In this document: positions 20,684-60,614 of the stretch, one piece after another | How the letters are laid out: each line of letters starts with the position of its first letter | How positions within the stretch are numbered: position 1 is the first letter of the stretch | Origin: a virus | IMG/VR virus record: IMGVR_UViG_3300030019_000576 | Reading direction: 5' to 3' (one strand) | Length of the DNA stretch: 64,000 bases | Notes under the pieces: generated by a model | Databases searched by the model: none | Told to the model about the DNA's origin: nothing | The model's input: the letters and a program-made list of their open reading frames with translations, nothing else | Program-made: the position numbers and the translations under genes

Positions 20684-21016
20684 TTAACAAGGACTGCTTC
20701 TACGCATAGATGAACCACATCCATCAGAAGTAGCTTTCGGTTTTATAAATCCATTTTCTTTTTTAAGTTTTACTAATTTAGATTTAAGAACTTCATATTC
20801 AGCTTGTTCTTTTGATATTTCCATTTCTTTCAACTTAATAGCAATTTCCAATTCATGCTTACTGAAAAAGTAATCTAAACTTTCCATTGTAATATCACCC
20901 GAAGTAATCAAAGTTCTTATGACAGTGTTTCTGAATTCTTCAAGACTGTTACCCTTTTCAAGAAAAAACTTGTAATAAGATTCTAAAAATTCTATTTCTG
21001 ATTTGTTTGCACTCAT
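20684..21016 (-). CDS. precursor-like protein with a Cys-containing DGCGSS C-terminal tail
   Basis: Helical, acidic N-terminal part with a C-terminal ...TSDGCGSSMRRSSPC, the same tail type as 50903..51274. Confidence 0.4.
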   Translation of the reverse strand: MSANKSEIEFLESYYKFFLEKGNSLEEFRNTVIRTLITSGDITMESLDYFFSKHELEIAIKLKEMEISKEQAEYEVLKSKLVKLKKENGFIKPKATSDGCGSSMRRSSPC

Positions 21017-33194: not shown

Positions 33195-33396
33195 ATATTT
33201 TTTTTATTAAGAACGTTCTATATGTTGGATTACTTTTACCCAAGTAATACCACATTCTTTGTCCATTGCTTAAACTTTTCCAATATACTGAACAAAATAC
33301 CCTTACTTTCTTTTTAAGTTTTCTTGGTATTTTATTATCAGAAAATGATATTACTTTAGGTAAAGTAAAATGTTTATCTAAATCTTCGTATTTCAT
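33163..33396 (-). CDS. hypothetical protein
   Basis: Small basic ORF. Confidence 0.3.
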   Translation of the reverse strand: MKYEDLDKHFTLPKVISFSDNKIPRKLKKKVRVFCSVYWKSLSNGQRMWYYLGKSNPTYRTFLIKKICDYDRFQIIR

Positions 33397-34274
33397 TAGT
33401 TAATATATTCATCCATTAAAAATATTCCGCAAGAGCTTCCGCAATCTTGTCCTGGTGGGATATAATATTCATATTCAATATTATATTTTTTGAAGTGTTC
33501 AGCAAAAATTTCAACTTGTTTAAAGTCAGAATGTTTAGCTGGTATATTTTCTTTTTCATTATAATATAAAAACTTCACATTAAATCCTTTGTCTTTAATT
33601 AAATCAGTTAAACGTATAGCATCTTCTTCTGTATCATTTATACCATCAATTAATGCATAGTGAATTTCAACCTTATTACCCGTTTTTATTTTATAAAAAT
33701 CTGCTGCTGCTATTGTAGATTTAATATCTAATGATGCTTTCATCCATTCATTTCTTAATTCATCAGTAGTATAGTGTAATGATATATGCAATTTAACATT
33801 TAAATTTAACATATCAATTAATCTTACCATGTTAAAAAAATGTTCGTAATTATATTTTGGTAATGCAGTTGCAAATGCAAATCTTGTATTTACTTTATAT
33901 TCATTATTAATATAATTCATACTGTCAACTACTGCTTTATAATTTGTTACAGCATCACCCATACCCATGTAGCTTATTAAAAGTGTTTTTGGTTCAACCT
34001 TTAGCTTTAAATCAAGGTAGATATAATCAATACCATCTGTTATTTCATCCCAAGTTAAATTTCTTGATACAATTTTACCAATTAAATCAGTTGCAAAACA
34101 AAATTTACATGCTAAATTACATAATGTATTACATGGTACACATATAATATCTTTACCATCATTTTTATTGATATATGAAAATTCAATTATTAAATTATCT
34201 TCTGTGTAGAAAACATATTTAATAGTACTGTCAATAGTTGATTTAACTATTTTCTTTAATCTAAGTTTACCCAT
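33396..34274 (-). CDS. radical SAM methyltransferase, RlmN/Cfr family
   Basis: CVPCNTLCNLACKFCFAT aligns with RlmN CVSSQVGCALECKFCST. MGMGDAVTN aligns with MGMGEPLLN, LHISLHYTTDELR with LAISLHAPNDEIR, and C-terminal GQDCGSSCG with DDIDAACGQ (the conserved C-terminal Cys). Confidence 0.7.
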   Translation of the reverse strand: MGKLRLKKIVKSTIDSTIKYVFYTEDNLIIEFSYINKNDGKDIICVPCNTLCNLACKFCFATDLIGKIVSRNLTWDEITDGIDYIYLDLKLKVEPKTLLISYMGMGDAVTNYKAVVDSMNYINNEYKVNTRFAFATALPKYNYEHFFNMVRLIDMLNLNVKLHISLHYTTDELRNEWMKASLDIKSTIAAADFYKIKTGNKVEIHYALIDGINDTEEDAIRLTDLIKDKGFNVKFLYYNEKENIPAKHSDFKQVEIFAEHFKKYNIEYEYYIPPGQDCGSSCGIFLMDEYIN

Positions 34275-34317: not shown

Positions 34318-34686
34318 TTATTTTGTATATTTTACAAGATTATCCCAATCGCTACTATCTTTTTCTTCCATCCAAACATGTATTATTTTATCGTTAAAAA
34401 TATTATACTTTTTAACAGTTTCTTTTATGAAATCTGATATTTCATCGTTTGTCATTTTGCATTCATAATAAAGTTTTTCCCATAAATCTTCAATAACCCA
34501 CATAGTTAAAGTTGATTCATAATATTGAATCATTATATTATTATCAACACCAAAATATTTATTACTAAGTTGATTTTTAACTTTTATCTTACCTATACCA
34601 AAAGTATAATCAAGAAAAATCCGTTGTGCAAGGGTTAATCTTGATTCCTTTATTCGATGTATTTTATCTAAAATACTATTTGACAT
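34318..34686 (-). CDS. DKIxxIK-SRLS family protein
   Basis: MSNSILDKIHRIKESRLTLAQR. Confidence 0.45.
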   Translation of the reverse strand: MSNSILDKIHRIKESRLTLAQRIFLDYTFGIGKIKVKNQLSNKYFGVDNNIMIQYYESTLTMWVIEDLWEKLYYECKMTNDEISDFIKETVKKYNIFNDKIIHVWMEEKDSSDWDNLVKYTK

Positions 34687-35080
34687 AGTTGTGTTTCCTT
34701 TCTATACTATTAAGATGTCTTATAATATGTTTCCATGATTTGTTTTCCTTATGTCTTATAATGATATCCGAATCTTTTATATCGTAATTTTTATTAAAAA
34801 AATCATTTATAACTTTTTTTAATTCAGATGCATTCTTTATAGGAAGTATTAAATTACTTGCTGAATTACCCCAAAATAGTTCATTATCCAAATGTAGTAT
34901 AGTTTTAAGTACAGTCCTTTCTATTTCAAATAGTATACGACCATCCTTTATATAAAATAATGATGTAGGGTATTGTTTATGTCTAAATGGTGTAATATTA
35001 ATACATAAACCAATTAAATATCGTTCATTATCACTTAATCTACTATATTTTATAGTTCTTATTTTATCTAACATTTTCAT
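34676..35080 (-). CDS. DKIxxIK-SRLS family protein
   Basis: MKMLDKIRTIKYSRLSDNER. Confidence 0.45.
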   Translation of the reverse strand: MKMLDKIRTIKYSRLSDNERYLIGLCINITPFRHKQYPTSLFYIKDGRILFEIERTVLKTILHLDNELFWGNSASNLILPIKNASELKKVINDFFNKNYDIKDSDIIIRHKENKSWKHIIRHLNSIERKHNYVK

Positions 35081-35411
35081 ATTGTTTTAAATTATCCCAC
35101 CAATCTTGTTGACTATCTGAAATAACATCTATTTTATATCCTAAAATATTTAAATGAACATGAAACATTTTATAAATAAAATCTTCAATATCCCAATCAT
35201 TCTTAACACTTACAATCATACACCATAACGTCCTATTAACCCATACTGATTTACCTTTCGTGTTTTGTTCAAATACACAACCACGTGTGTTATACCACCG
35301 AATTATATTATCACTCACTTGATGGGGTTTAATACAATCAATAGCATCAATAAAAGTTCTTTCTTCTTTTGATAATCTACTATATTTAATTTTTTTTATT
35401 TTATCTTTCAT
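35064..35411 (-). CDS. DKIxxIK-SRLS family protein
   Basis: MKDKIKKIKYSRLSKEER. Confidence 0.45.
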   Translation of the reverse strand: MKDKIKKIKYSRLSKEERTFIDAIDCIKPHQVSDNIIRWYNTRGCVFEQNTKGKSVWVNRTLWCMIVSVKNDWDIEDFIYKMFHVHLNILGYKIDVISDSQQDWWDNLKQYENVR

Positions 35412-35722
35412 ATATCTTTCAATGAAAATTCAGTTATATGAATTTTTAAATATCGACTAATAGTTTTCCATATTAAAGATTCTGTTTCATATGAATTTAA
35501 TCTTAATTTTTGACTTAAATTATAAAAAAGTTCCGTACTAAATACAATTGAACCATAATCATTAAATAGAAACTTTGTAAAGTAAAAAAGTTTTTTACTA
35601 TTTTTTGTATAATAAAAAAAACCATTTTCTTCAACTATTTTAACATCATCAAAAATGATGCATTTCATCATTTCTTTTGGTGTAAGTCTACTGTATTTAA
35701 TTTGTCTTATTTTATCTTTCAT
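35408..35722 (-). CDS. DKIxxIK-SRLS family protein
   Basis: MKDKIRQIKYSRLTPKEM. Confidence 0.45.
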   Translation of the reverse strand: MKDKIRQIKYSRLTPKEMMKCIIFDDVKIVEENGFFYYTKNSKKLFYFTKFLFNDYGSIVFSTELFYNLSQKLRLNSYETESLIWKTISRYLKIHITEFSLKDI

Positions 35723-36069
35723 AAATATTCTATTGTGAAAAAGGTCATCCTAATTTTAAAATGCAAAGCAATAGTTTTCATAATTAATAATTCTGTTTCA
35801 TTTGTATCTAAATGTAATTTTTTACGTAATCTATAAAAAAGATTATGACTAAATACAATTTCACCATATTTTGGATCATCAGTAAATGCAAATTTTCTAA
35901 AGTAAAAAATATTTATATTATTTCGTTTATAATTTATACTATTTCGTTTATAATATATTCTTCCACCTTCTTTATTTGTTTCCACACCATCCACAATGAA
36001 ATATCTCATGATTTCTTTTGGTGTCATTCTACTATATTTGATTCTTTGTATTTTATCTTTTATGTTCAT
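35719..36069 (-). CDS. DKIxxIK-SRLS family protein
   Basis: MNIKDKIQRIKYSRMTPKEI. Confidence 0.45.
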   Translation of the reverse strand: MNIKDKIQRIKYSRMTPKEIMRYFIVDGVETNKEGGRIYYKRNSINYKRNNINIFYFRKFAFTDDPKYGEIVFSHNLFYRLRKKLHLDTNETELLIMKTIALHFKIRMTFFTIEYL

Positions 36070-45505: not shown

Positions 45506-46477
45506 TTAATTATTACTAATAAATTTATCAACAATATCTACACATTGTTTAAATCTGTCTTCAAAATCAGTTCCTTTAATGTAAGAAATATTCTTATCTT
45601 TAAAGTTATTGTATAGCAATTCGTGGAATTTTGAACGATTTGGTTCACCCATCCGACTACCATCATCAACAAAAGGTACATCATTCCATAGGAATAAGTA
45701 TAAATCAAATTTATTTGCATCTTCTACTTCCTTAGTGATATTTTCTGGGTGTTTATCAAATAGAAAGTTACTATAACAAACAGTTGTTATTAAATCAGTA
45801 TCAGAAAATAATATTTTATCCCCTAAGTTTTTTTCAATTTCTTCTGCTTGACCTGTAATTATTAGATTTATCATATCTGTATCACATATTTTTGTATCTG
45901 AACACACATCACGACCTACTTCTTTTGCAAACTTAAAGTTATAGTGATTAGATAATAATTCTGTCATAGTTGATTTACCAGTACTTTCAGTACCACATAT
46001 ACATATTTTTTTAGTATAATATGATTTAACTGATTTTGGTATAAAATTCCAATATTTTAATGGTGTTTCCCTTATTGATGTAGATGAAATCGGTGTGTTT
46101 GTTCTTTTTTCATCGTATTGCATATGTTTAATATTCATAAATCCACCAACATAATCACCATATTTTTCACTTGTGAAAATTATATTCACATCAGGAAATA
46201 AATCTGTTAAATATAAAGACCAAACCCTTGATATTTCAATATTTGATACAGATGTATTTTCCATATGTGATGTATCCTTATGAATTATTTTTATATTAGG
46301 TATATCTTTAAATTCTTCTTGTAACCATTTATATCTAAGTTCGCTTGGAATTTCTTCTTTATCGTGTGAGCATAATAATACATAAAGAAAATCAGAATTT
46401 GATAATCCAAAGTTTATTAAAGAAAGATGTCCATTATGTAAAGGACAAAAACTACCTAATACTAATCCTGTTCTCAT
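45506..46477 (-). CDS. nadR: bifunctional NMN adenylyltransferase / ribosylnicotinamide kinase (NadR type, lacking the HTH domain)
   Basis: GLVLGSFCPLHNGH (HxGH). ISSTSIRETPLKYWNFIPKSVKSYY...ICGTESTGKST aligns with E. coli NadR ISGAQIRENPFRYWEYIPTEVKPFF...ILGGESSGKST. A Walker B DTD is present. Confidence 0.85.
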   Translation of the reverse strand: MRTGLVLGSFCPLHNGHLSLINFGLSNSDFLYVLLCSHDKEEIPSELRYKWLQEEFKDIPNIKIIHKDTSHMENTSVSNIEISRVWSLYLTDLFPDVNIIFTSEKYGDYVGGFMNIKHMQYDEKRTNTPISSTSIRETPLKYWNFIPKSVKSYYTKKICICGTESTGKSTMTELLSNHYNFKFAKEVGRDVCSDTKICDTDMINLIITGQAEEIEKNLGDKILFSDTDLITTVCYSNFLFDKHPENITKEVEDANKFDLYLFLWNDVPFVDDGSRMGEPNRSKFHELLYNNFKDKNISYIKGTDFEDRFKQCVDIVDKFISNN

Positions 46478-46478
46478 T

Positions 46479-47024
46479 TTACGTTGTTTTTAAATGTTTT
46501 TTCCATTCTTTATAACCCGCAATTGATAATATTATTAATAATAAATTATACCCTGCGATGTAATACATATCTTGATGAAGACATAATATAATTAACATTA
46601 CATTATTTATCATAAAAATCCACCAAGATTCAATAACCTTTTTAACTAATAAATATGTTGCAAGTAGTGCGATAATACCACCTATACCATCAAGATATAA
46701 TAAATTATTATTAGTTGTTTTAGTTAATAATGTAAAGATAATACCAATCACCATGCATATTCCTATGCATAGTGCTGATTTAGTATATCCTATTTTTGTA
46801 ACTTCTTTTGTATCAACTTCATTCCATTTTACCCAACCATACGCACATTGACCAACTGAAACAAGTTGTAATACCATCTGTGAATAAAAGTTTACATTAT
46901 AAAAGTAATAGGTTAATAGTACTGCACTAATTAATCCAAATACCCAACAAAGTAGATTTTGTTTAATTGTTAAAAACACACTTACTATTCCAATAATGAC
47001 TGAAATTAATTCAATATTTTTCAT
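46479..47024 (-). CDS. pnuC: nicotinamide riboside transporter
   Basis: CAYGWVKW and C-terminal ESWWIFMINNVM...IAGYNLLLIILSIAGYKEW align with PnuC (NIYGWYAW, ENWLLWVIINV...). Its start overlaps the receptor stop (TAATG). Confidence 0.8.
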   Translation of the reverse strand: MKNIELISVIIGIVSVFLTIKQNLLCWVFGLISAVLLTYYFYNVNFYSQMVLQLVSVGQCAYGWVKWNEVDTKEVTKIGYTKSALCIGICMVIGIIFTLLTKTTNNNLLYLDGIGGIIALLATYLLVKKVIESWWIFMINNVMLIILCLHQDMYYIAGYNLLLIILSIAGYKEWKKHLKTT

Positions 47025-48997
47025 TAAAATTTAACTTTAACTGTTGTATAAAAATTAAGTGGAGCACCTATAAAATAAGCATTTTCCCCATTTGAAACAT
47101 ACCCACCCGTAAAGTATTTAGTGTTAGTTAAATTATTACCTTGAATTGATAAGTTTACATTTTTAGTTAATTGATAACCAATTTTTGCATTGAATAATAC
47201 ATAACCAGGAATTGTTTCAGTATTTGCAGGATTAATAAATGCATCCGATAAATATCGACCAGATACGTTTATAAAGAGCTTACCGTTGTTGTATTCAATA
47301 TTCTGATTAACTATTACATTTGGTGTATAAAGTGCGTGATATGATGTGTTATCACCTTTAATTTCACTATTCATTAATGTTGTATTATTATTTATAGATA
47401 AATTTTTTGTAAGATTACATGAAAAATCAAATTCTGCACCATAACGTGAACTTTTATCTACATCTGTCATTAATGGTAAACTATTTAACCCCATTGCACC
47501 TAATTGTGTAATTTCATTATTAAAGTCCATATAAAACAAATTACTTTGAAGTTTCACAACACTATTTGATAAGTTATAACCAAGTTCATAGTCAATAACA
47601 CTTTCAGGTTTAATTATAAATAAATCAACTAAATTATCATTCCCACCGAACATGTCACTTCTTGTAGGTTCACGGTGTGATTGACCAACCGAAAAATACA
47701 AAGATTCATTATTTGTAATTGTGTATGTCACACCCCCACGTGGATTTAAAAACAACCAATTAATTCGTTTCATTGGATTATCACCTATGTAAGTGAAGTT
47801 AACATTACGTAATTGTAAGTCAGTAAATAAACTAAATTTATTTATATCATAATTTGCTTTGATGTAAAAACTTCCTTCGTTTTTATATCCAGTATTTGTA
47901 TATAAGGAATCAATCTGAACAGAACCAGGGTGTGTCATATTTCCACTGTGTGTTCGATTATATGTATTAAGCTGAAATCCAGTGTTAAATTTTAAATCAT
48001 TATATTTTATAAGATAATTTGATGTGAACCCAACGAAATTAGAATTTAATCCAAAATTAAGCAAGTCAGTTGGTGCAGTAAACATACCCCATTTACCATC
48101 TAAATGATTGTAAAAGAAAGTATTTGTTAGAACATAATTACTTGATTCACTATGAACATATTGTAACTGTACAAAACTTTGATTAAAATCATCATTTTCA
48201 CCTTTAGGGTTATAATTTGTGCGAGGGTCTTTTAATATATCAGATTCTGATACTGCATACCATGCCATTTGATTAATTGATTTACCCGAAAATGCAGTCA
48301 ACTTTAATACATCCTTATTACCATAGTATCCACCCGAAAGAAATGCTGAATAACCACTACCACTTGAATTATATTTATACCCATCACTTGTATATTCTGA
48401 TACACTACCAAATAACGCAAATTTATTAATTAAACCCGTACCAAAATTAACATTAAGTGATTGTGTTCCAAAACTACCCGATGTAAAACTTGCATTAAAA
48501 CCTTTATCTAAACCTGTTTTACTTTCAAAATTAATACTACCACCATATGAAGATGTACCATTTGCTGATGTACCAATACCACGTTGGATTTGCATAGAAT
48601 TAATATTCATTGCGAAATTAGGAAAATTGCTAAAATATACCCCTTGGTCTTCACTTTCATTTAACGGAATACCATTTAATGTCATATTTATACGTGTTTG
48701 GTCAATTCCACGAATTCGAAATGATACATATCCATTAGGTTGACCACCATCAGATTGTGATGTAATTGATGGTGTTTTATCTAAAATATACACCATTTCT
48801 TGACCACTGTATTGCTTATCAATGTCAACACTATTGACAACTTTTTGGGAAATAGGTGTTTTAATATCTGGTCGAATACCTACAACTTCCACGTCATTTA
48901 ACTTTACTACTTTTACAGTATCTTTTGATACTTGCGAATAAGAGGTAAACACATTAAATAATGCGATAACCAACACAAAAAATTTAATTTTCTTCAT
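47024..48997 (-). CDS. TonB-dependent outer-membrane receptor
   Basis: Signal peptide MKKIKFFVLVIALFNVFTSYSQ, an N-terminal plug region, a long beta-barrel with alternating aromatic strands and a C-terminal ...VKVKF (terminal Phe). Confidence 0.7.
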   Translation of the reverse strand: MKKIKFFVLVIALFNVFTSYSQVSKDTVKVVKLNDVEVVGIRPDIKTPISQKVVNSVDIDKQYSGQEMVYILDKTPSITSQSDGGQPNGYVSFRIRGIDQTRINMTLNGIPLNESEDQGVYFSNFPNFAMNINSMQIQRGIGTSANGTSSYGGSINFESKTGLDKGFNASFTSGSFGTQSLNVNFGTGLINKFALFGSVSEYTSDGYKYNSSGSGYSAFLSGGYYGNKDVLKLTAFSGKSINQMAWYAVSESDILKDPRTNYNPKGENDDFNQSFVQLQYVHSESSNYVLTNTFFYNHLDGKWGMFTAPTDLLNFGLNSNFVGFTSNYLIKYNDLKFNTGFQLNTYNRTHSGNMTHPGSVQIDSLYTNTGYKNEGSFYIKANYDINKFSLFTDLQLRNVNFTYIGDNPMKRINWLFLNPRGGVTYTITNNESLYFSVGQSHREPTRSDMFGGNDNLVDLFIIKPESVIDYELGYNLSNSVVKLQSNLFYMDFNNEITQLGAMGLNSLPLMTDVDKSSRYGAEFDFSCNLTKNLSINNNTTLMNSEIKGDNTSYHALYTPNVIVNQNIEYNNGKLFINVSGRYLSDAFINPANTETIPGYVLFNAKIGYQLTKNVNLSIQGNNLTNTKYFTGGYVSNGENAYFIGAPLNFYTTVKVKF

Positions 48998-49657: not shown

Positions 49658-49969
49658 TTAATGTCTTTCATTACCGTATTCTAAAAGTTTTCTCAACTTT
49701 TCAACAACCGTTTCAAAATTTTCTTCATCTTTGAAAAATTCCTTTGCTTGAAATGCTGATGGTGAATCTGATGTTCTAACTGCATACATTGCTTCTCTTA
49801 ATAAAGAAAATTCTTTAATTGTTAATGGTTCAATGTCCGTATATTGTTCAATTTCTTTTTTTTGTAAAGATAAATCTTTTGTACCATATAATTCTTCTAT
49901 CTGTTTTTGTTTTCTTGATTTAAAGATATTAGAAAATCCTTCAAATGTTTTTACTGTTTTATTTTTCAT
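49658..49969 (-). CDS. hypothetical protein
   Basis: Co-oriented ORF. Confidence 0.4.
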   Translation of the reverse strand: MKNKTVKTFEGFSNIFKSRKQKQIEELYGTKDLSLQKKEIEQYTDIEPLTIKEFSLLREAMYAVRTSDSPSAFQAKEFFKDEENFETVVEKLRKLLEYGNERH

Positions 49970-49995
49970 AAAATGTTTTTTATTATATATTAAAA

Positions 49996-50886
49996 TTAAT
50001 ATATTATATTATTTTCACCAAAACCATATCTAAGATATTCACCATCAAATATAAGACTATTTGTTGTATCTTGATTTTTATATGTATTTTTTAAATATAA
50101 TTTAATATGTTCACCTTTGAAGTTTTTTGGGGTATATAAATAATTTCTACAAGTACAGTGTTCGGGGTATTCAAACTGTTTCGAATTAAAGAAACCCTTC
50201 TTCAATTTTAAGATATTAATGTCAATAAAATTATCAGTACAATATTCATTAACTTGTAATAATGAAACAAATCCTGCTGAAAATACATTTAATTCATTTG
50301 CGTTTTCTAAGAAATTAATTACTTTTCTATTAGTATCGACACCACCTTTTACTAAAGTGCATCCAAAATGTAGCAACCCATCTCTTGTATGATTGGATTG
50401 TACTTCACCTATTTCTTCATTTGAAATACTTTTAAACCCTAAAATTCTATCGTTTATTTTATTGTTATAGTGGTGTTTAGATAGTCCAATATTATCTATA
50501 TAATCTACTGTTGAATCAGCAAACATTTGAACTAACTTCAATCCATTTGTATTTAATCCAATATAAGTATTGGGATATTCTTCTTTTGTGAATTTTAATA
50601 CATCTTTAAATCTACTGTAATTTAAAGTTGGTTCACCACCCGTAAATTGTATTTTTCTTAGTTCAACACTGTTACGTTTTATTTCTGCTAAAATTTCTTC
50701 ATATTTTTTAAAATTAAAATGATTAGCTATTTCTTTGAATTCACAAAATAAACAATCAGCATTACATCCTTTAAATCTAACATAAAGATTAATATAGGGT
50801 TCTGTTATATCAGAACCCTCATTACCGAAAAACATACAATACTTATCACGTAATGTAATGTCTTTATCAAATAAGTTTATATTCAT
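49996..50886 (-). CDS. radical SAM enzyme (possible peptide-modifying maturase)
   Basis: GCNADCLFCEF is the CxxxCxxC cluster; FTGGEPTL is the SAM-binding GGE motif. Extra C-terminal cysteines (EYC, HCTC) could be an auxiliary cluster. It lies directly downstream of the Cys-rich precursor-like gene. Confidence 0.6.
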   Translation of the reverse strand: MNINLFDKDITLRDKYCMFFGNEGSDITEPYINLYVRFKGCNADCLFCEFKEIANHFNFKKYEEILAEIKRNSVELRKIQFTGGEPTLNYSRFKDVLKFTKEEYPNTYIGLNTNGLKLVQMFADSTVDYIDNIGLSKHHYNNKINDRILGFKSISNEEIGEVQSNHTRDGLLHFGCTLVKGGVDTNRKVINFLENANELNVFSAGFVSLLQVNEYCTDNFIDINILKLKKGFFNSKQFEYPEHCTCRNYLYTPKNFKGEHIKLYLKNTYKNQDTTNSLIFDGEYLRYGFGENNIIY

Positions 50887-50902
50887 ATTTTTTGTTTAAA
50901 AA

Positions 50903-51274
50903 TTAACAACTCGACCTATTACTACTACCAGAACTACCACATCCATCACTTGTCGTACTTCTGCTTATACTTCTACTTGGTGTACTACCACAACCATCAA
51001 TACGAACTGTTCTACCTGAACTACCACAACCATCACCATATGTTTGTGAAGGTCTTTGTACTTGTGGACTACTCTTACTAAATGATTTAAATCTTTTAAC
51101 TATTTCATTTGGTTCTTCATCATCTAAGAATTCTTCTATTATTTCTTTATCAATTTGACCATCTTCTACTAATTTATTAGTATATGTTTTAAATTTTGCT
51201 TCCCATTCGGTACCATATTTTGAATTAAAAAATTTTTTTAATTCTGATAATAAATTATTTTCCGCTTTTGTCAT
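50903..51274 (-). CDS. precursor-like protein with a triple DGCGS C-terminal tail
   Basis: Helical acidic N-terminal region of about 75 aa, then ...GDGCGSSGRTVRIDGCGSTPSRSISRSTTSDGCGSSGSSNRSSC (four Cys in repeated DGCGS units). Confidence 0.45.
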   Translation of the reverse strand: MTKAENNLLSELKKFFNSKYGTEWEAKFKTYTNKLVEDGQIDKEIIEEFLDDEEPNEIVKRFKSFSKSSPQVQRPSQTYGDGCGSSGRTVRIDGCGSTPSRSISRSTTSDGCGSSGSSNRSSC

Positions 51275-51332
51275 AATAATGTTTTTTATTATATATATTA
51301 TTATTACAAATTAGTTTTTATAAAGACAAAAA

Positions 51333-52055
51333 TTATTTAAATTTTTCATCAAATATATCAAAATTATCACCTACTGAATTGTTATCGTTAATAATAGCAA
51401 AGACAACATTTTTAAATAAATCAGCGTATCCATTTGTTACTAAGATATTATAAAACAAATTTGAAATTATTTCAGGATTGTTTTTAAATACACCACACCC
51501 CCAAGCACCAATAACAATATTTTCAACATTGTTATTGATTGCAAGTGATAACATCAATTTTATTTTATTTTTTGTTGTATCAATATAATAAGAATTATCA
51601 TAATTACAAATTTCATTAAGATTCATTGCAGCAATAGTAATAACATCAGATACAATTTCGTCCATATAATCATAATTTACATCTTTAAAAAATATCGCAT
51701 CCTTTGTATATAACGCTTGATTTTCAACTAATGGATAGAATATATTACTTATAACATTAAATAGATTAGAACACCTAAAAAGACATTCTTCTTGTGCTTT
51801 TGCACCATTTTCTACACCACCACCAGGTCTGGAAGGTGATGCCATATTAAGAACACAACTTTTACCTAATTTACTAACAATTTCCAATGCTGTTACCGAA
51901 TCAGAATTAACTACTAATATATTATTTTTAATACTTGGTGTAACTGCAATTGTTACTGAATCAAGAAAAGTATGTTTAGTAGTGACTGATTTATTCATGT
52001 CAATACTATAATTTTTAGTATCTTTGAATACATTAATTAATTTATCATTGTTCAT
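51333..52055 (-). CDS. bacterial-type poly(ADP-ribose) glycohydrolase-like macrodomain protein (DUF2263/TIGR02452-like)
   Basis: NMASPSRPGGGVENGAKAQEECLFRCSNL contains the bacterial PARG catalytic signature GGG-X7-QEE. Confidence 0.55.
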   Translation of the reverse strand: MNNDKLINVFKDTKNYSIDMNKSVTTKHTFLDSVTIAVTPSIKNNILVVNSDSVTALEIVSKLGKSCVLNMASPSRPGGGVENGAKAQEECLFRCSNLFNVISNIFYPLVENQALYTKDAIFFKDVNYDYMDEIVSDVITIAAMNLNEICNYDNSYYIDTTKNKIKLMLSLAINNNVENIVIGAWGCGVFKNNPEIISNLFYNILVTNGYADLFKNVVFAIINDNNSVGDNFDIFDEKFK

Positions 52056-52355: not shown

Positions 52356-52796
52356 TTATTCTGGAATTAAAAAAGGAAGTAATTTTATTTTTTTACATTT
52401 ACCTGTTACACTGTTAAATATAGTGTTGTTTATCATTGATTTATACTGAATATAATATTCTTCTTTGTTTGATTCTTCTTTACAAACATTTTCACGATTA
52501 AAATTCTTATAAATCATAGATTTCACATAACATGCGATGGTTTCATCTGCATGTCTTTTACCGACTTCAATAGTATAATATTCTTTAATTTTTTTATATA
52601 CTTCTTCATTCATAATTAGATAGTTATCTTTTATATCATATCTAAATATTTCTTTATTTTTTGTTTTATAATTTACAAGATAATCACTATCCCAATCTCT
52701 AATTTCTTTTAAAGAAAATAATAGTTTTAGAAAGTAACTTTCTGATTTTGGTATTCTGTCCTTTTTAATTAATAATATTTTATCTTTTATTGTCAT
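52356..52796 (-). CDS. DKIxxIK-SRLS family protein
   Basis: MTIKDKILLIKKDRIPKSES. Confidence 0.45.
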   Translation of the reverse strand: MTIKDKILLIKKDRIPKSESYFLKLLFSLKEIRDWDSDYLVNYKTKNKEIFRYDIKDNYLIMNEEVYKKIKEYYTIEVGKRHADETIACYVKSMIYKNFNRENVCKEESNKEEYYIQYKSMINNTIFNSVTGKCKKIKLLPFLIPE

Positions 52797-53215
52797 AATT
52801 TAAATTTCAATATTCTTTTTATAAAACTGTATTTACTTTTATGTTTTATTTCCTCTTTTAATTTTAAAACTTGGTTTTTTGACATCATTCTACCAATTGT
52901 TATGGGTGATGTTTCTAATTTATCTTTTATTATAGTGAAGTAACCGTTTTTATTTTCATATAATAATTCTTTAAAAAGTTCAATACCAAGTTGTTCATCA
53001 ATATTATACTGCATTGCTCTTCCAATTACTTTATATATTAAAAAAAATGTGTTATGTGTATTATTATATTCAAATATACAAGTATCATCCTTAATAAAGT
53101 ATATGTCATTTTTACACTCTAAAATTTCTATATTATTCAATAAGTTTTCTAAATCGAATATATATGTATTATACCTACTTCTTTTAATAAGTTTTATTTT
53201 ATCTTTTATATCCAT
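52793..53215 (-). CDS. DKIxxIK-SRLS family protein
   Basis: MDIKDKIKLIKRSRYNTY. Confidence 0.45.
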   Translation of the reverse strand: MDIKDKIKLIKRSRYNTYIFDLENLLNNIEILECKNDIYFIKDDTCIFEYNNTHNTFFLIYKVIGRAMQYNIDEQLGIELFKELLYENKNGYFTIIKDKLETSPITIGRMMSKNQVLKLKEEIKHKSKYSFIKRILKFKL

Positions 53216-53520
53216 GAATGAGGTGATTTTCTACATTTAAAAATTTCAATACCGGTTGTATACTTTACTAAGTATTTTTTTATAGTTGATTCAACATCTA
53301 TCCACTTTAAATTAAATTCTATTTCAAGTTTATCCCATACTTCACGTCTAATGAAAATAGTTTTATACATATAATCGGTTTCTAATATTATAGAATCATT
53401 ACAAGTATAATACCATGAAGTACCTTGCTGTACTAAGTTTTCGAATATCCCCTTTAAATAATATTCTTCGGGTGACATTCTACTAAGTTTTATTTGTTTT
53501 ATTTTATCTAACACTTCCAT
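53206..53520 (-). CDS. DKIxxIK-SRLS family protein
   Basis: MEVLDKIKQIKLSRMSPEEY. Confidence 0.45.
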   Translation of the reverse strand: MEVLDKIKQIKLSRMSPEEYYLKGIFENLVQQGTSWYYTCNDSIILETDYMYKTIFIRREVWDKLEIEFNLKWIDVESTIKKYLVKYTTGIEIFKCRKSPHSWI

Positions 53521-53860
53521 CTTCTATTTGTTTATTTATTAAATAAAAATCTTCATATGGTCTTAATTCACAATCTTCCCAACCTAAATTATTTTTTAAT
53601 AACTTTCTAAGAAGTAAGATTACTTCATGGTCATTATATCCAAATTTATTAATTAAATTAAACCAAATTTTATCTTCTACATATATAAGATTAGTAAATT
53701 TCTTTTTAAGAAATGCAATATTTTTCATATACCTATATATTTCAGAAGTTGCATCCCATTGTTCAACATAGACGTATTCTAACCCATTTATTATAGTTAA
53801 TAAATATTTTTCAACTTCACTTAGACGTGAATACTTTATTCGTTTTATTTTATCTATCAT
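53504..53860 (-). CDS. DKIxxIK-SRLS family protein
   Basis: MIDKIKRIKYSRLSEVEK. Confidence 0.45.
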   Translation of the reverse strand: MIDKIKRIKYSRLSEVEKYLLTIINGLEYVYVEQWDATSEIYRYMKNIAFLKKKFTNLIYVEDKIWFNLINKFGYNDHEVILLLRKLLKNNLGWEDCELRPYEDFYLINKQIEDGSVR

Positions 53861-57104: not shown

Positions 57105-57785
57105 TTAATCCATTCCAATGATTTTATCAATTGCACCGTATTCTTTAGCTTCAACCGAAGTCATCCAATAATCACGTTCACAATCTGCTGAAACTTTTTC
57201 AAGTGGTTGACCAGTCCTGGTTGAAATAATTTCATATAATTCATTCTTTAAAAGTTGAATTTGTTTGTATGTTATTTCAATTTCAGTTGCTTGACCTTGA
57301 ACACCCCCAAGTGGTTGATGTTGCATTAACCGTGAATGTTTTAAACAAGACCGATTTTTTCCCGATATAGATAGAATGTATGCCATACTTGCAGCAATAC
57401 CTGTTACTATCGTATTTACATCCGGTTTAATAAATTCCATCGTATCAAGAATACTATATCCAGCGTAAATTCCACCACCACCACTATTAATATATAAATT
57501 AATATCAGTTTTATCTGTTGAATTCATATAAAGTAATTGTCCTGTAATAATGTTAGATACATCATCATTGATAGCTGTTCCTAAATAGATAATTCGATCC
57601 ATCATCAAACGACTAAATACATCCATTGAAGCAACGTTTAACTGTCGTTCTTCAATGATAGTTGGATTAATATAACTGCTACTAAGTGTATTAGTAAATT
57701 TGCGATAACTATCTAAAGTTGTAGAACTTATACCTTGTGATTTTAAAAATAAGTTCACATCTTTTTGAAATTTTTGTTCGTTCAT
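57105..57785 (-). CDS. clpP: ATP-dependent Clp protease proteolytic subunit, with an N-terminal extension of about 45 aa
   Basis: GIAASMAY (catalytic Ser), LMQHQPLGG (His) and ERDYWMT (Asp) are intact; YINSGGGGIYAG is the INSPGG loop. Confidence 0.75.
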   Translation of the reverse strand: MNEQKFQKDVNLFLKSQGISSTTLDSYRKFTNTLSSSYINPTIIEERQLNVASMDVFSRLMMDRIIYLGTAINDDVSNIITGQLLYMNSTDKTDINLYINSGGGGIYAGYSILDTMEFIKPDVNTIVTGIAASMAYILSISGKNRSCLKHSRLMQHQPLGGVQGQATEIEITYKQIQLLKNELYEIISTRTGQPLEKVSADCERDYWMTSVEAKEYGAIDKIIGMD

Positions 57786-57814
57786 AATTTATTTGTTTTA
57801 AAATTGTTTTTATA

Positions 57815-58879
57815 TTATTTAAAATTGTTAAGTTTTGAAAGTTGATTTAATAATTCTTCTTCTTCATCCGTTATTTGTTTTGGTATTGTTAAATTAACAA
57901 CTACTAATAAATCACCTCTATTACCACGTTGGTCTGCTAATCCCTTACCTTTAAGTTTTTTAACATCATTTGGTTTAGTGAATTTATTTATTACTATTTT
58001 AACATCACCTTCTAACGCTGGTATAATTGCTTCACCACCTAATATTAGCTTAGTATATGGAAGATATAAATTAAATATAAGATTTTGTCCGTCTCTTTGT
58101 AATTGTGTATTATTAATAACATCTATAAATATAATAAGATTCCCATAAATTCCACCATTTCCTGGTCTAATAGGTGAATTACCTTTACCACTTGCTTGAA
58201 ATTTATCACCATGATTAATACCTTTTGGTACGTTCACATTTAATTCTGTTTCTTCCTTTACAACACCAGTACCTTTACATTCATTACATTCATGTGTAAT
58301 AATATATCCATCACCTTTACATTTAGGACAGTCAACAGTTGACATAATTATGGTTGAACCCATTTGTCTTTTCATGTTTACCTTACCCGAACCATTGCAA
58401 TCTGAACAAGTATCGTGTTCCCCACCCCAACCATCACAAGATTTACATTTAACTTCACGATTATATTTAATCTTTTTATCTAACCCACTGATAACATCAG
58501 TTAAATCAATAGAAATTTTTAATTTAATATCATATCCACGTTTTATATTACGATTTGGTTGTGATTGAAATCCACCACCAAATCCACTGAATCCACCGAA
58601 TGCACTACCAAACATATCAGCGAATATATCACCTGAATTAAATCCACCAAACCCTGTTGGACCATCTGGATTACCATAGTTATCATAATTAGATTTTTTA
58701 GCATCATCACCTAAAACAGAATATGCTTCTGAAAGGTCTTTAAATTTTTCTTCGAAATCTTTATGTTCAGGATTCTTATCAGGGTGATATTTTTTTGCTA
58801 AGTTTCGGTATGCTTTTTTAATATCATCTTTTGATGTATTTTTATCTACACCTAAAACTTCATAATAATTTTTTGACAT
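57815..58879 (-). CDS. dnaJ: molecular chaperone DnaJ (type I: J domain, G/F region, four CxxCxGxG repeats, C-terminal domains)
   Basis: YYEVLGV...[13 protein letters not shown] includes the HPD motif. A G/F-rich linker follows, then [32 protein letters not shown]. Confidence 0.8.
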
Positions 58880-59435: not shown

Positions 59436-60614
59436 TTATACATCATATATTGGACATCCAATATTACATTTTCTACATGCTGAAACCTTGTCACCAAAAT
59501 CAGTTGTTTTTTTATTAAACCATACATCAGTCATAAAATCATTACAATTTGAAACCATTATACCTTGTTTCCAACCATCGGTACCTTCTGTAAATGAACA
59601 AGGAAAATATTCTGAATTAACATTAATATATGCTGAATATTTTCCACCTGCTTCACATGGTTCAATAAAAGTTTTCATATATTCATATTCAGTATTTTTA
59701 TTTATGAAAATATTTGCTTTTGCAGCAGAACAACTATCAAATCCTATACTAATTTTGTTATCAATTGCAAATTTAAAAAGATTGTCAAATTTTTCTTGTG
59801 ATAAATTAGTAAATCTACCAACACTTCTACCTTTTTCTTTAAGTGATAAAAATACAATACTTCTTAATTCAGATAATCTAATATCAGATTTTATATCATT
59901 CAAAATTTCAAATGCATTATCATAAGTTTCTTCTGAAATCATAACATGCAAATTACATTGTTTCAATCCTTTATCAGTTAGTTTTTTTACCGTATCATAT
60001 GATTTATCTTTATCATATACACTAACTGCAACTGCACCACAATATTTAACTAATTTATTAATATCATCATCAGTTGCTTCACCGTTTATTGTTATAGTTG
60101 GTATAATATCATTTGATTTAGTATAGTCTAATATATCCCATAAATCAGGACATAAATCAATGCTACCGATACCAAAAGCAATAGATGTTACAGATGGTGG
60201 TAATTTATGGAAAGTGTCTTTAAAGTCTTTAAATGAAATATTTTTACCATTTTTTATTGTATTGCTTTTATAACAAAATGCACATCCCATACTACATTTT
60301 TCACTAATTTCCCAATCAACAATTTCAGGTGCAGTTACACTAAAATCACCATCTGTTTTTAAATCAGTAAAAAATTCGTGTATATTTATTTTTACACCCC
60401 ACATATTAGACCATATACGATGTAATTTAATATCAAAAAGATTAAATCCTTTTTCTAAATTTGTATAATCACCTTTTCCCCAACGAATAAAAAAACCCGT
60501 TTGTTTATTAAATAAAAAATTATATTTTTCACTTTTAAGTGCTTTAAAAAGTGATGTATCAATAATAGTTGCTACATCACCATTTATCAAAATAATATTT
60601 GTTGTTTTAATCAT
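59436..60614 (-). CDS. radical SAM / SPASM-domain protein (anSME- or RiPP-maturase-like)
   Basis: EKCSMGCAFCY is the CxxxCxxC cluster. The C-terminus has a Cys-rich SPASM-like region (CEAGG...CSF...CND...CRKCNIGCP). Confidence 0.6.
   Translation of the reverse strand: MIKTTNIILINGDVATIIDTSLFKALKSEKYNFLFNKQTGFFIRWGKGDYTNLEKGFNLFDIKLHRIWSNMWGVKINIHEFFTDLKTDGDFSVTAPEIVDWEISEKCSMGCAFCYKSNTIKNGKNISFKDFKDTFHKLPPSVTSIAFGIGSIDLCPDLWDILDYTKSNDIIPTITINGEATDDDINKLVKYCGAVAVSVYDKDKSYDTVKKLTDKGLKQCNLHVMISEETYDNAFEILNDIKSDIRLSELRSIVFLSLKEKGRSVGRFTNLSQEKFDNLFKFAIDNKISIGFDSCSAAKANIFINKNTEYEYMKTFIEPCEAGGKYSAYINVNSEYFPCSFTEGTDGWKQGIMVSNCNDFMTDVWFNKKTTDFGDKVSACRKCNIGCPIYDV

Follow-up and report, generated by a model that had tools for sequence, protein, structure and literature searches.

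In the 64,000-nucleotide (nt) stretch of viral DNA IMGVR_UViG_3300030019_000576 (hereafter the window), we analysed two adjoining genes that encode a small protein with a cysteine-bearing C-terminal tail (the tail protein) and a radical S-adenosylmethionine (SAM) enzyme, which we call E2 (Table 1). Both lie on the minus strand, as do almost all genes of the window, whose overall guanine-plus-cytosine (GC) content is 25%. The tail gene precedes the enzyme gene with a gap of 16 nt (50887..50902) rather than the 17 nt given in a preliminary description of the locus. That description had read the open reading frame (ORF) of the tail protein as three DGCGS units and a terminal cysteine behind a helical, leader-like N-terminus. 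The three units and Cys123 are indeed present, and AlphaFold predicts helices at residues 3-38, 43-53 and 57-66, with a predicted local distance difference test (pLDDT) score of 76-86 to about residue 50; these helices, however, make up a folded domain of about 55 amino acids (aa). We regard residues 1-54 as a candidate docking or leader-like domain. The rest of the model is mostly disordered (pLDDT below 50 at residues 55-89, 93-95 and 98-119), and the tail-coding segment has 41% GC compared with 24% for the N-terminal domain of the same gene. Of the 173 ORFs in the window that have 60 aa or more, only 4 have a C-terminal cysteine. They include the tail protein and a 110-aa paralogue with the same type of tail, which had already been pointed out in the preliminary description and was confirmed here. 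No radical SAM gene adjoins this orphan paralogue.

E2 falls within the radical SAM superfamily by cluster motif, SAM-binding GGE motif and partial TIM-barrel fold. The reported CNADCLFCEF and GGEP motifs were found as described (CNADCLFC at residues 41-48, GGEP at residues 83-86), and further cysteines occupy positions 17, 176, 216, 244 and 246. Pfam returns only Radical_SAM and Fer4_12 for this protein (PF04055, 57.9 bits against a cut-off of 29.5), and only about 35 residues, predicted to form beta-hairpins, lie ahead of the cluster motif. The structural model has a pLDDT of 94.9, and its neighbours are proteins of the radical SAM fold, including the peptide maturases SuiB, anSME, SkfB, CteB and YydG. 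The comparison values tabulated for E2 are 19.4 for Tes, 18.5 for MoaA, 16.9 for Viperin, 16.7 for SuiB, 16.5 for BlsE and 15.5 for both anSME and SkfB. A search of BFVD gave no close viral structure for E2; the best query TM-score was 0.66 at 15% identity.

Conservation of the pair

In a scan of IMG/VR we recovered another 32 full-length loci, most of them on contigs between 150 and 480 kb long. Our counts refer to 34 intact phage-type loci, a set without L028 (bacterial type) and L032 (a decayed pseudogene). The preliminary description had suggested looking for homologous tail pairs in related phages, and 31 of the 34 loci have a tail ORF within about 1 kb of E2, with E2 identities to the window enzyme reaching down to 29%. 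The arrangement is compact: in 28 loci an ORF of 85-210 aa that ends in cysteine lies directly upstream of E2 with a gap of 0-19 nt, and the stop codon of the tail gene overlaps the E2 start codon in some of them. Two loci are rearranged, L012 (2999-3987) by a 233-aa ORF inserted between the tail and E2 genes, and L016 (4918-5199) by a tail gene that sits just downstream of E2 on the opposite strand. Other neighbours of the pair change between loci, whereas the adjacency of tail gene and E2 stays.

Outside this set, an exact-protein look-up led to contigs L157 and L162, where E2 is 32% and 36% identical to that of the window and a tail ORF again lies directly upstream. A phage-like contig in a Bacilli metagenome-assembled genome bin has an E2 with 32% identity and a tail ending in ...NDSCGGGSSSGSSRSSC, and a 464-kb contig keeps the pair with a tail ending in ...SYGSCGGSYGRC. 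The nearest database relatives of E2 belong to uncultured huge phages of 635-735 kb (39-43% identity). Searches by tblastn gave hits for E2 in only four uncultured huge phages, and for two tail proteins nothing outside the query's own genome. When we looked for the pair in cultured phages, weak matches in Erwinia jumbo phages proved to be a different radical SAM protein of 468 aa. Full-text literature searches returned no paper on the pair. The identities of E2 and of the tail N-domain co-vary between loci (Spearman 0.52, 190 pairs), which shows co-inheritance only.

The tail proteins form a family of their own, with 46 clusters recovered from databases by profile search, none of them named. 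They are 86-210 aa long and mostly have 2-4 cysteines among the last 60 residues, counting any cysteine at the end of the N-domain. The N-domain follows the pattern LL..L..F...F......L..[TSD]G[DQE]I......F, and the tail end the consensus [DS][GP]CG-x-[YF]S[SR]S[RSH]C-COOH (55 non-redundant tails), in which the last six residues are kept as [YF]S[SR]S[RSH]C. All 55 tails end in cysteine, although the preliminary description had allowed that homologs might lose their tail cysteines. In 46 of the 55 the final two cysteines are 9-12 positions apart. The penultimate one stands within [DS]-[GP]-C-G. Across these alignments the cysteines, and the terminal one above all, come out as the best-conserved feature of the tail protein. 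Directly after this cysteine, 25 of 28 loci have TAA as their stop codon; the terminal cysteine is therefore not a product of stop-codon recoding.

Among 225 members of the E2 family the cluster cysteines 41, 45 and 48 are kept at 100%, as are C244 and C246, with C17 at 99% and C176 at 97%; in the S-x-H-H motif, S136 and H138 are kept at 100% and H139 at 92%. The family signature spans about 290 aa and reads C-x23-CX3CX2C, GGEP, NxNG, SxHH, C(N), CxCxNY and DG..GF. The near-invariant cysteines 17, 176, 244 and 246 most likely bind an auxiliary Fe-S cluster. In a set of 1.84 billion representative clusters (50% identity), about 231 match E2 at E<=1e-30 and 1871 do so at E<=1e-10. The family has a MoaA/viperin-like core. 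By these profiles, the E2 family is small, sharply delimited and part of no described family.

We found no E2-tail fusion among the family members. Two proteins with N-terminal extensions, P0059 and P0088, were considered as fusions and rejected, since their gene calls merely continue into the tail gene in its other reading frame. These public calls prolong E2 into the GC-richer tail-coding segment (translated as 'VVVVEV...'), so automated annotation can hide the small tail gene.

The adjacency of tail gene and E2 is not chance, given that 4 of 173 window ORFs end in cysteine while the pairing recurs in 31 of 34 loci and the terminal cysteine in 55 of 55 tails. Because the pairing is tight and conserved, and because the C-terminal hexapeptide is conserved to an extreme degree on a disordered arm, we consider it quite probable that enzyme and tail protein are a functional pair of some kind.

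Table 1. Coordinates of the features discussed, in the window and at other loci.
Feature	Position	Strand	Remarks
Tail protein gene	50903..51274	minus	123 aa, stop codon included; from the ORF list
Tail protein, N-terminal helical domain (residues 1-54)	51113..51274	minus	AlphaFold helices and family pattern
Tail protein, Ser/Gly/Arg-rich tail (residues 55-123)	50906..51112	minus	low pLDDT; carries the Cys units
DGCGS unit 1 (residues 81-85)	51020..51034	minus	
DGCGS unit 2 (residues 93-97)	50984..50998	minus	
DGCGS unit 3 (residues 110-114)	50933..50947	minus	10 positions (9 intervening residues) ahead of Cys123
Codon of C-terminal Cys123	50906..50908	minus	followed by TAA at 50903-50905
E2 gene	49996..50886	minus	radical SAM enzyme, 296 aa
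E2, CNADCLFC (residues 41-48)	50743..50766	minus	CX3CX2C motif for the SAM-binding [4Fe-4S] cluster
E2, CTCRNY (residues 244-249)	50140..50157	minus	invariant CxC; presumed auxiliary-cluster ligands with C17 and C176
16-nt exact repeat TATAATAAAAAACATT, copy 1	51278..51293	minus	just upstream of the tail gene
16-nt exact repeat TATAATAAAAAACATT, copy 2	49972..49987	minus	upstream of the gene after E2 (49658..49969)
Orphan tail paralogue	20684..21016	minus	110 aa; a single DGCGS unit; C-terminus ...RRSSPC / ...SDGCGSSMRRSSPC
Microbial PARG-like macro domain	51333..52055	minus	TIGR02452, 135 bits; directly upstream of the pair
NadR-like gene	45506..46477	minus	downstream of the pair
PnuC-like gene	46479..47024	minus	downstream of the pair
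TonB-dependent receptor gene	47024..48997	minus	downstream of the pair
Third radical SAM gene	59436..60614	minus	392 aa; CSMGCAFC at residue 107; C-terminal ...CRKCNIGC...
Complete RlmN/Cfr-like radical SAM gene	33396..34274	minus	292 aa; both mechanistic Cys (IICVPCNTLCNLAC...; loop ...PPGQDCGSSCGIF)
Split RlmN, Kehishuvirus 'tikkala' (OQ198717)	L071 3004-3926		cultured phage
Split RlmN, Moorella phage MTATph1	L072 3001-3963		cultured phage
Split RlmN, Vibrio phage D479	L073 3004-4084		cultured phage; AACGQL ORF duplicated in tandem
Further split RlmN loci	L077-L154		
Four-gene cassette	L004 2894-5028; L011 2867-5052	one strand	tightly packed
Four-gene cassette, further loci	L008-L010, L020, L022-L026, L030, L031, L033, L035		L035 has no tail gene
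Incomplete cassettes	L029; L032		L029, short contig, core-tail-E2 only; L032, decayed partial copy
Bacteroidales sister loci	L155 1245-7153; L158 1645-6237; L159/L160 2139-7801; L165-L212		

Known families, a split RlmN and a bacterial sister clade

The preliminary description had placed the pair with the precursors and enzymes of ranthipeptides, SCIFF peptides or sactipeptides, that is, among the peptides that are made on ribosomes and modified after translation (RiPPs). That assignment did not hold. Unlike CteB, PapB, AlbA and SkfB, E2 has neither a SPASM/twitch signature nor a RiPP recognition element (RRE), and none of the NCBIfam models of the SCIFF, PapB, AlbA and SkfB maturases matches it above 20 bits. 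Its cysteines 17, 176, 244 and 246 are spread along the chain, whereas SPASM enzymes have a C-terminal CX9-15GX4C...CX2CX5CX3C block, and SPASM or twitch domains bind one or two auxiliary clusters. Neither tail protein of the window matches Pfam or NCBIfam. SCIFF and ranthipeptide precursors have about 45 aa with six cysteines in their C-terminal half (TIGR03973), or CX3D-type repeats; the tails are longer and carry [DS][GP]CG and a terminal cysteine. The strict C-terminal cysteine has no counterpart in SCIFF, ranthipeptide or sactipeptide pairs, which also differ from the present pair by its folded helical leader, its lack of a protease or exporter, and its phage setting.

An assignment of E2 to an NrdG-like or QueE-like family, which would have spoken against a peptide-modifying role, was not obtained, as the NCBIfam scores lie 3-10 fold under the curated cut-offs: NrdG2 44.3 against 131, PFLA 29.9 against 232 and QueE 35.4 against 260 bits. 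HxsC (41.4 against 268 bits) and YydG (23.5 against 300 bits) likewise stay far below. No glycyl-radical or Que genes adjoin the pair. We also considered the G-C-G units as glycyl-radical sites and rejected this reading: an RVxG-type motif is missing, and E2 scores far under the cut-offs of the activase models. The viperin model NF038283 reaches 45.6 bits against 180 and covers only residues 32-148; in PADLOC, the pVip models likewise match residues 38-148 only, a partial core. MoaA scores 31.9 bits against 284 (TIGR02666) and 32.3 against 325 (TIGR02668). Compared with MoaA and viperin, E2 thus scores 4-9 fold below the cut-offs, has a cysteine pattern that differs, for instance from the C-terminal CX2CX13C cluster of MoaA, and lacks MoaC, MoaD and kinase partners; in the window, moaC, moaD and moaE are all absent from the vicinity of the pair. 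Viperin-like structure matches end near residue 197 of 293, while MoaA aligns up to residue 249. The thymidine-hypermodification radical SAM enzyme of phage M6 is SPL-like and unrelated.

Two known systems resemble the pair in their logic. MftC acts on the very C-terminal end of MftA (...GVY), its small partner, and QhpD makes Cys-Asp/Glu thioethers in QhpC, a small protein that is kept. Both MftC and QhpD are SPASM proteins, and MftC needs the RRE protein MftB. In the window, the best NCBIfam match to the mycofactocin maturase model is the third radical SAM protein and not E2. By its sequence, the two-gene module would function like a radical SAM maturase-precursor pair, yet it bears the defining marks of no known family.

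In 16 loci, a 262-aa radical SAM gene with an RlmN/Cfr-like core lies upstream of the tail gene. Such split cores have 262-280 aa and are without both mechanistic cysteines: the C118 equivalent is a glycine, and the chain ends with 'SPINPN' before the C355 loop. In RlmN, C355 is required to carry the methyl group and C118 to release the covalent adduct of enzyme and RNA, and canonical RlmN chemistry without the resolving cysteine would halt at a Cys-CH2-adenine adduct (PMC9692996). The absent loop is encoded by a separate ORF of about 40 codons (...AIATxxEIxxGAACGQLxII), present in 82 of 84 split-core loci. In cultured phages, this AACGQL ORF is the next tiny ORF after the core. In huge phages, the tail and E2 genes are nested in between, in the order core, tail, E2, AACGQL peptide (15 loci and the decayed copy L032). 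Two complete huge-phage genomes with the pair, LR745206 and LR756502, have no split core, so the pair can work alone. Genomes of the lineage of the window likewise have the pair and no split core. In LR756501, a third complete huge-phage genome, no tail gene adjoins E2. The literature searches gave no paper on a split RlmN in phages.

E2 itself is not RlmN-like (23 bits to RlmN); what the two systems share is a radical SAM gene together with a tiny ORF that carries Cys-Gly on a flexible segment. We asked whether the tail N-domain could be a degenerate RlmN C-terminal piece, setting AIATxxEIxxGAACGQL against the N-domain pattern ..L[VI]x[TSD]G[DQE]I. This idea was dropped, as hhalign of A4 against A7 gave a probability of 0.1% on these short sequences. 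The window has no split core; its complete RlmN/Cfr-like gene lies 16 kb from the pair. The loop of that protein reads 'DCGSS' (GQDCGSSCGIF), which resembles the tail unit 'DGCGSS'. A co-variation of the two was rejected, because other genomes with the pair have no homologue of this gene, and the likeness is probably a coincidence.

Chromosomes of Bacteroidales (Prevotella, Hoylesella, Bacteroides, Muribaculaceae and others) carry a sister clade of E2, whose members share 28-34% identity with the enzyme of the window. Its loci have the gene order large protein, E2-like radical SAM, HemN/HemW/STM4012-like radical SAM; the large protein is of the DUF1810 or phrog_2072 type in 46 of 49 loci, and the second radical SAM gene is present in 45 of 49. 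The conserved domain of the large protein, with the motif GSNxxGxHGGGAA...GQSYAIPT, matches only phrog_2072 (unknown function) and nothing in the PDB. Several sister loci have ADP-ribosylglycohydrolase genes, and 11 of the 49 have an NrtR-like Nudix regulator. One protein of 737 aa, P0217, is a HemN-like::E2 fusion, the sole true fusion that we found in the family. No paper on the bacterial operon or on DUF1810 came up in the full-text searches.

Possible roles of the tail

Our preferred reading, to which we assign a probability of roughly 0.45, is that E2 acts on or modifies the C-terminal tail of the small protein and that the two genes form one module. With the same reserve, the module could be described as a RiPP-like enzyme-substrate pair of a new type. 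This retains the conserved enzyme-tail pair of the RiPP-like system originally proposed, but not its class (SCIFF, ranthipeptide or sactipeptide); no protease or exporter gene lies nearby. That the tail is a substrate is suggested by the varying number of DGCGS units, from one to three between the close relatives P0147, P0148, P0150 and P0151, and by the presence of several tail paralogues for one E2, as in the window, which has two, and in L020, where a tandem of two was seen. The accessible, disordered tail on a folded N-domain also favours this reading, as do the invariant extra cysteines and S-x-H-H of E2 and the peptide maturases among its fold neighbours.

In such a scheme, the helical domain would dock the tail protein on E2, and the flexible tail would thread into the barrel. 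The terminal cysteine, which offers a thiolate and a free carboxylate, may then bind the auxiliary Fe-S cluster. A substrate cysteine binds an auxiliary cluster in sactipeptide and ranthipeptide synthases. The 5'-deoxyadenosyl radical would take a hydrogen inside the Cys unit, giving a Cys-centred modification. The most plausible product would be an intramolecular thioether from the Cys sulfur to a carbon of the upstream Asp/Gly segment, formed once per unit; the candidate chemistries could also include another Cys-centred change or a conjugation. The modified protein would probably stay in the cell and not be a secreted peptide.

Several observations weigh against a tail-modifying role of E2. 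The SPASM/twitch and RRE domains that the preliminary description had proposed to look for were not detected by Pfam or NCBIfam: E2 has no PF13186 match, N_Twi_rSAM gives 25 bits against 170, and neither a PqqD-type Pfam match nor a PqqD-like neighbouring gene was found. The E2 family profile scores 54 bits with MoaA, 54 with viperin and 50 with the peptide epimerase YydG, about equally close to each. In the sister clade of Bacteroidales, the four extra cysteines and S-x-H-H are kept although no Cys-tail protein is present, and among the phage-type loci, L002 and L021 (one lineage) and L035 have no adjoining tail gene. The AACGQL peptide of the same cassettes, likewise encoded separately, evidently belongs to the enzyme and is no substrate. 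The L014-type tails, the L027 tail and the tandem paralogue of L020 (3316..3654) keep only the terminal cysteine, so a link from each unit's cysteine to an upstream residue is not universal.

If E2 does modify the tail, several aspects would be new. New enzymatic chemistry has one of its main sources in radical SAM enzymes whose substrates are proteins and peptides. To our knowledge, almost all of them are built with SPASM/twitch and RRE domains and originate in biosynthetic clusters of bacteria, and we know of almost nothing on post-translational chemistry in huge and jumbo phages. Here the enzyme family, its architecture and the phage setting all differ, and a disordered tail that has to end in a free cysteine would represent a new recognition logic. 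The module is compact (123 and 296 codons) and has natural variants with one to three units or the terminal cysteine alone; being small and well delimited, it is directly testable by co-expression and mass spectrometry. The nesting in a split RlmN, the HemN-paired or HemN-fused sister clade and the NAD/ADP-ribose neighbours hint at wider, undescribed radical SAM/thiol-peptide systems.

A less likely alternative is that the tail is a trans-acting, thiol-bearing helper and not the substrate, the true substrate being a nucleotide or nucleic acid that E2 would handle together with a methylase-type radical SAM partner. The tail could provide a resolving or hydrogen-donor thiol, or carry sulfur, methyl groups or electrons on a flexible arm. 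Such a role is made plausible by the split RlmN, where a core without catalytic cysteines has its cysteine loop encoded as a separate peptide, and the nesting of tail and E2 genes between core and AACGQL peptide points in the same direction. So do the tail-less Bacteroidales clade, consistently found beside a HemN/HemW-like radical SAM gene and fused with it in P0217, and L035, which has E2 and the split core without a tail gene. MoaA and viperin, which are closest to E2 in sequence, have nucleotides as substrates, and NAD/ADP-ribose genes recur nearby (PARG-like, NadR and PnuC in the window lineage; ADP-ribosylglycohydrolase and NrtR in bacteria). On the other hand, the repetition of Cys units and the several paralogues for one E2 suit a substrate better. 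LR745206 and LR756502 carry the pair with neither a split core nor a homologue of the RlmN-like gene of the window, the hhalign probability of 0.1% speaks against a relation of tail proteins and AACGQL peptides, and the E2 family has few invariant basic residues, though a triphosphate site would want them.

A further reading, which we consider improbable, is that E2 covalently links the tail cysteine to a nucleobase or nucleotide through a thioether or methylene bridge, alone or with the split RlmN-like core, which is without the cysteine that normally resolves the crosslink of enzyme and RNA. If true, phages would make defined protein-RNA or protein-nucleotide conjugates, for instance for blocking or marking RNA of the host, or as traps for molecules derived from NAD or ADP-ribose.

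It seems just as improbable that the two genes are functionally unrelated neighbours, the tail being a metal-binding, redox or structural appendage brought next to E2 by shared regulation or hitch-hiking. The orphan paralogue without a nearby enzyme would fit this explanation, as would the three loci in which E2 has no adjoining tail gene. The adjacency, however, persists in 31 of 34 loci while other neighbours change, and the gap stays at 0-19 nt. Tail gene and E2 gene also enter the split RlmN cassette together, as one unit, and in L012 and L016 the tail gene remains less than 1 kb from E2 despite rearrangement.

Very improbable is a classical secreted RiPP or phage bacteriocin freed by leader cleavage, of the ranthipeptide/SCIFF or sactipeptide kind: a repeated Cys/Gly/Ser-rich core does stand beside a radical SAM gene, and the conserved Asp-Gly or Asp-Pro ahead of the cysteine could mark a cleavage point, but E2 lacks SPASM and RRE with no maturase model above 20 bits, no protease or ABC exporter gene was seen near any locus examined, and the supposed leader folds as a domain of 55 aa, with a long linker or coiled coil behind it.

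Surroundings of the pair in the window

The pair is bracketed by the two copies of TATAATAAAAAACATT, the only exact copies in the 64-kb window, which share 20 nt in all. No copy lies between the tail gene and the E2 gene, an arrangement that fits a single transcription unit, and the two genes are probably co-transcribed. The repeats could be promoter-like elements or the footprint of a cassette insertion. A scan for sigma-70 promoters and terminators gave fewer promoter-like sites than in shuffled sequence and therefore carries no weight here.

In the window lineage, NAD-related genes flank the pair on both sides, with the PARG-like macro domain upstream and the NadR-like, PnuC-like and TonB-dependent receptor genes downstream. 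Among 36 loci, the window included, NadR-like genes recur in 13, PnuC-like genes in 11 and TonB-dependent receptor genes in 11. The block of these three is predicted to serve nicotinamide riboside uptake and NAD salvage, and the region around the pair may be a counter-defence island.

The third radical SAM gene of the window had been described as a radical SAM/SPASM enzyme. Its radical SAM assignment stands (Pfam, 40.5 bits), but neither Pfam nor NCBIfam calls a SPASM domain. It matches phrog_7293 (unknown function; E 6.5e-65) and shows a weak likeness to NirJ and mycofactocin maturases. No Cys-rich small ORF lies beside it, and we found no link to the pair.

Two further groups of genes were noted on the minus strand. 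Nine paralogous genes of 104-146 aa with the common N-terminus 'DKIxxIKYSRL(S/T)' form arrays at 34318..36069 and 52356..53860, each just upstream of a block that holds a radical SAM gene. At 57105..58879, a ClpP-like protease (226 aa) stands beside a full-length DnaJ (354 aa), both named by reading their sequences.

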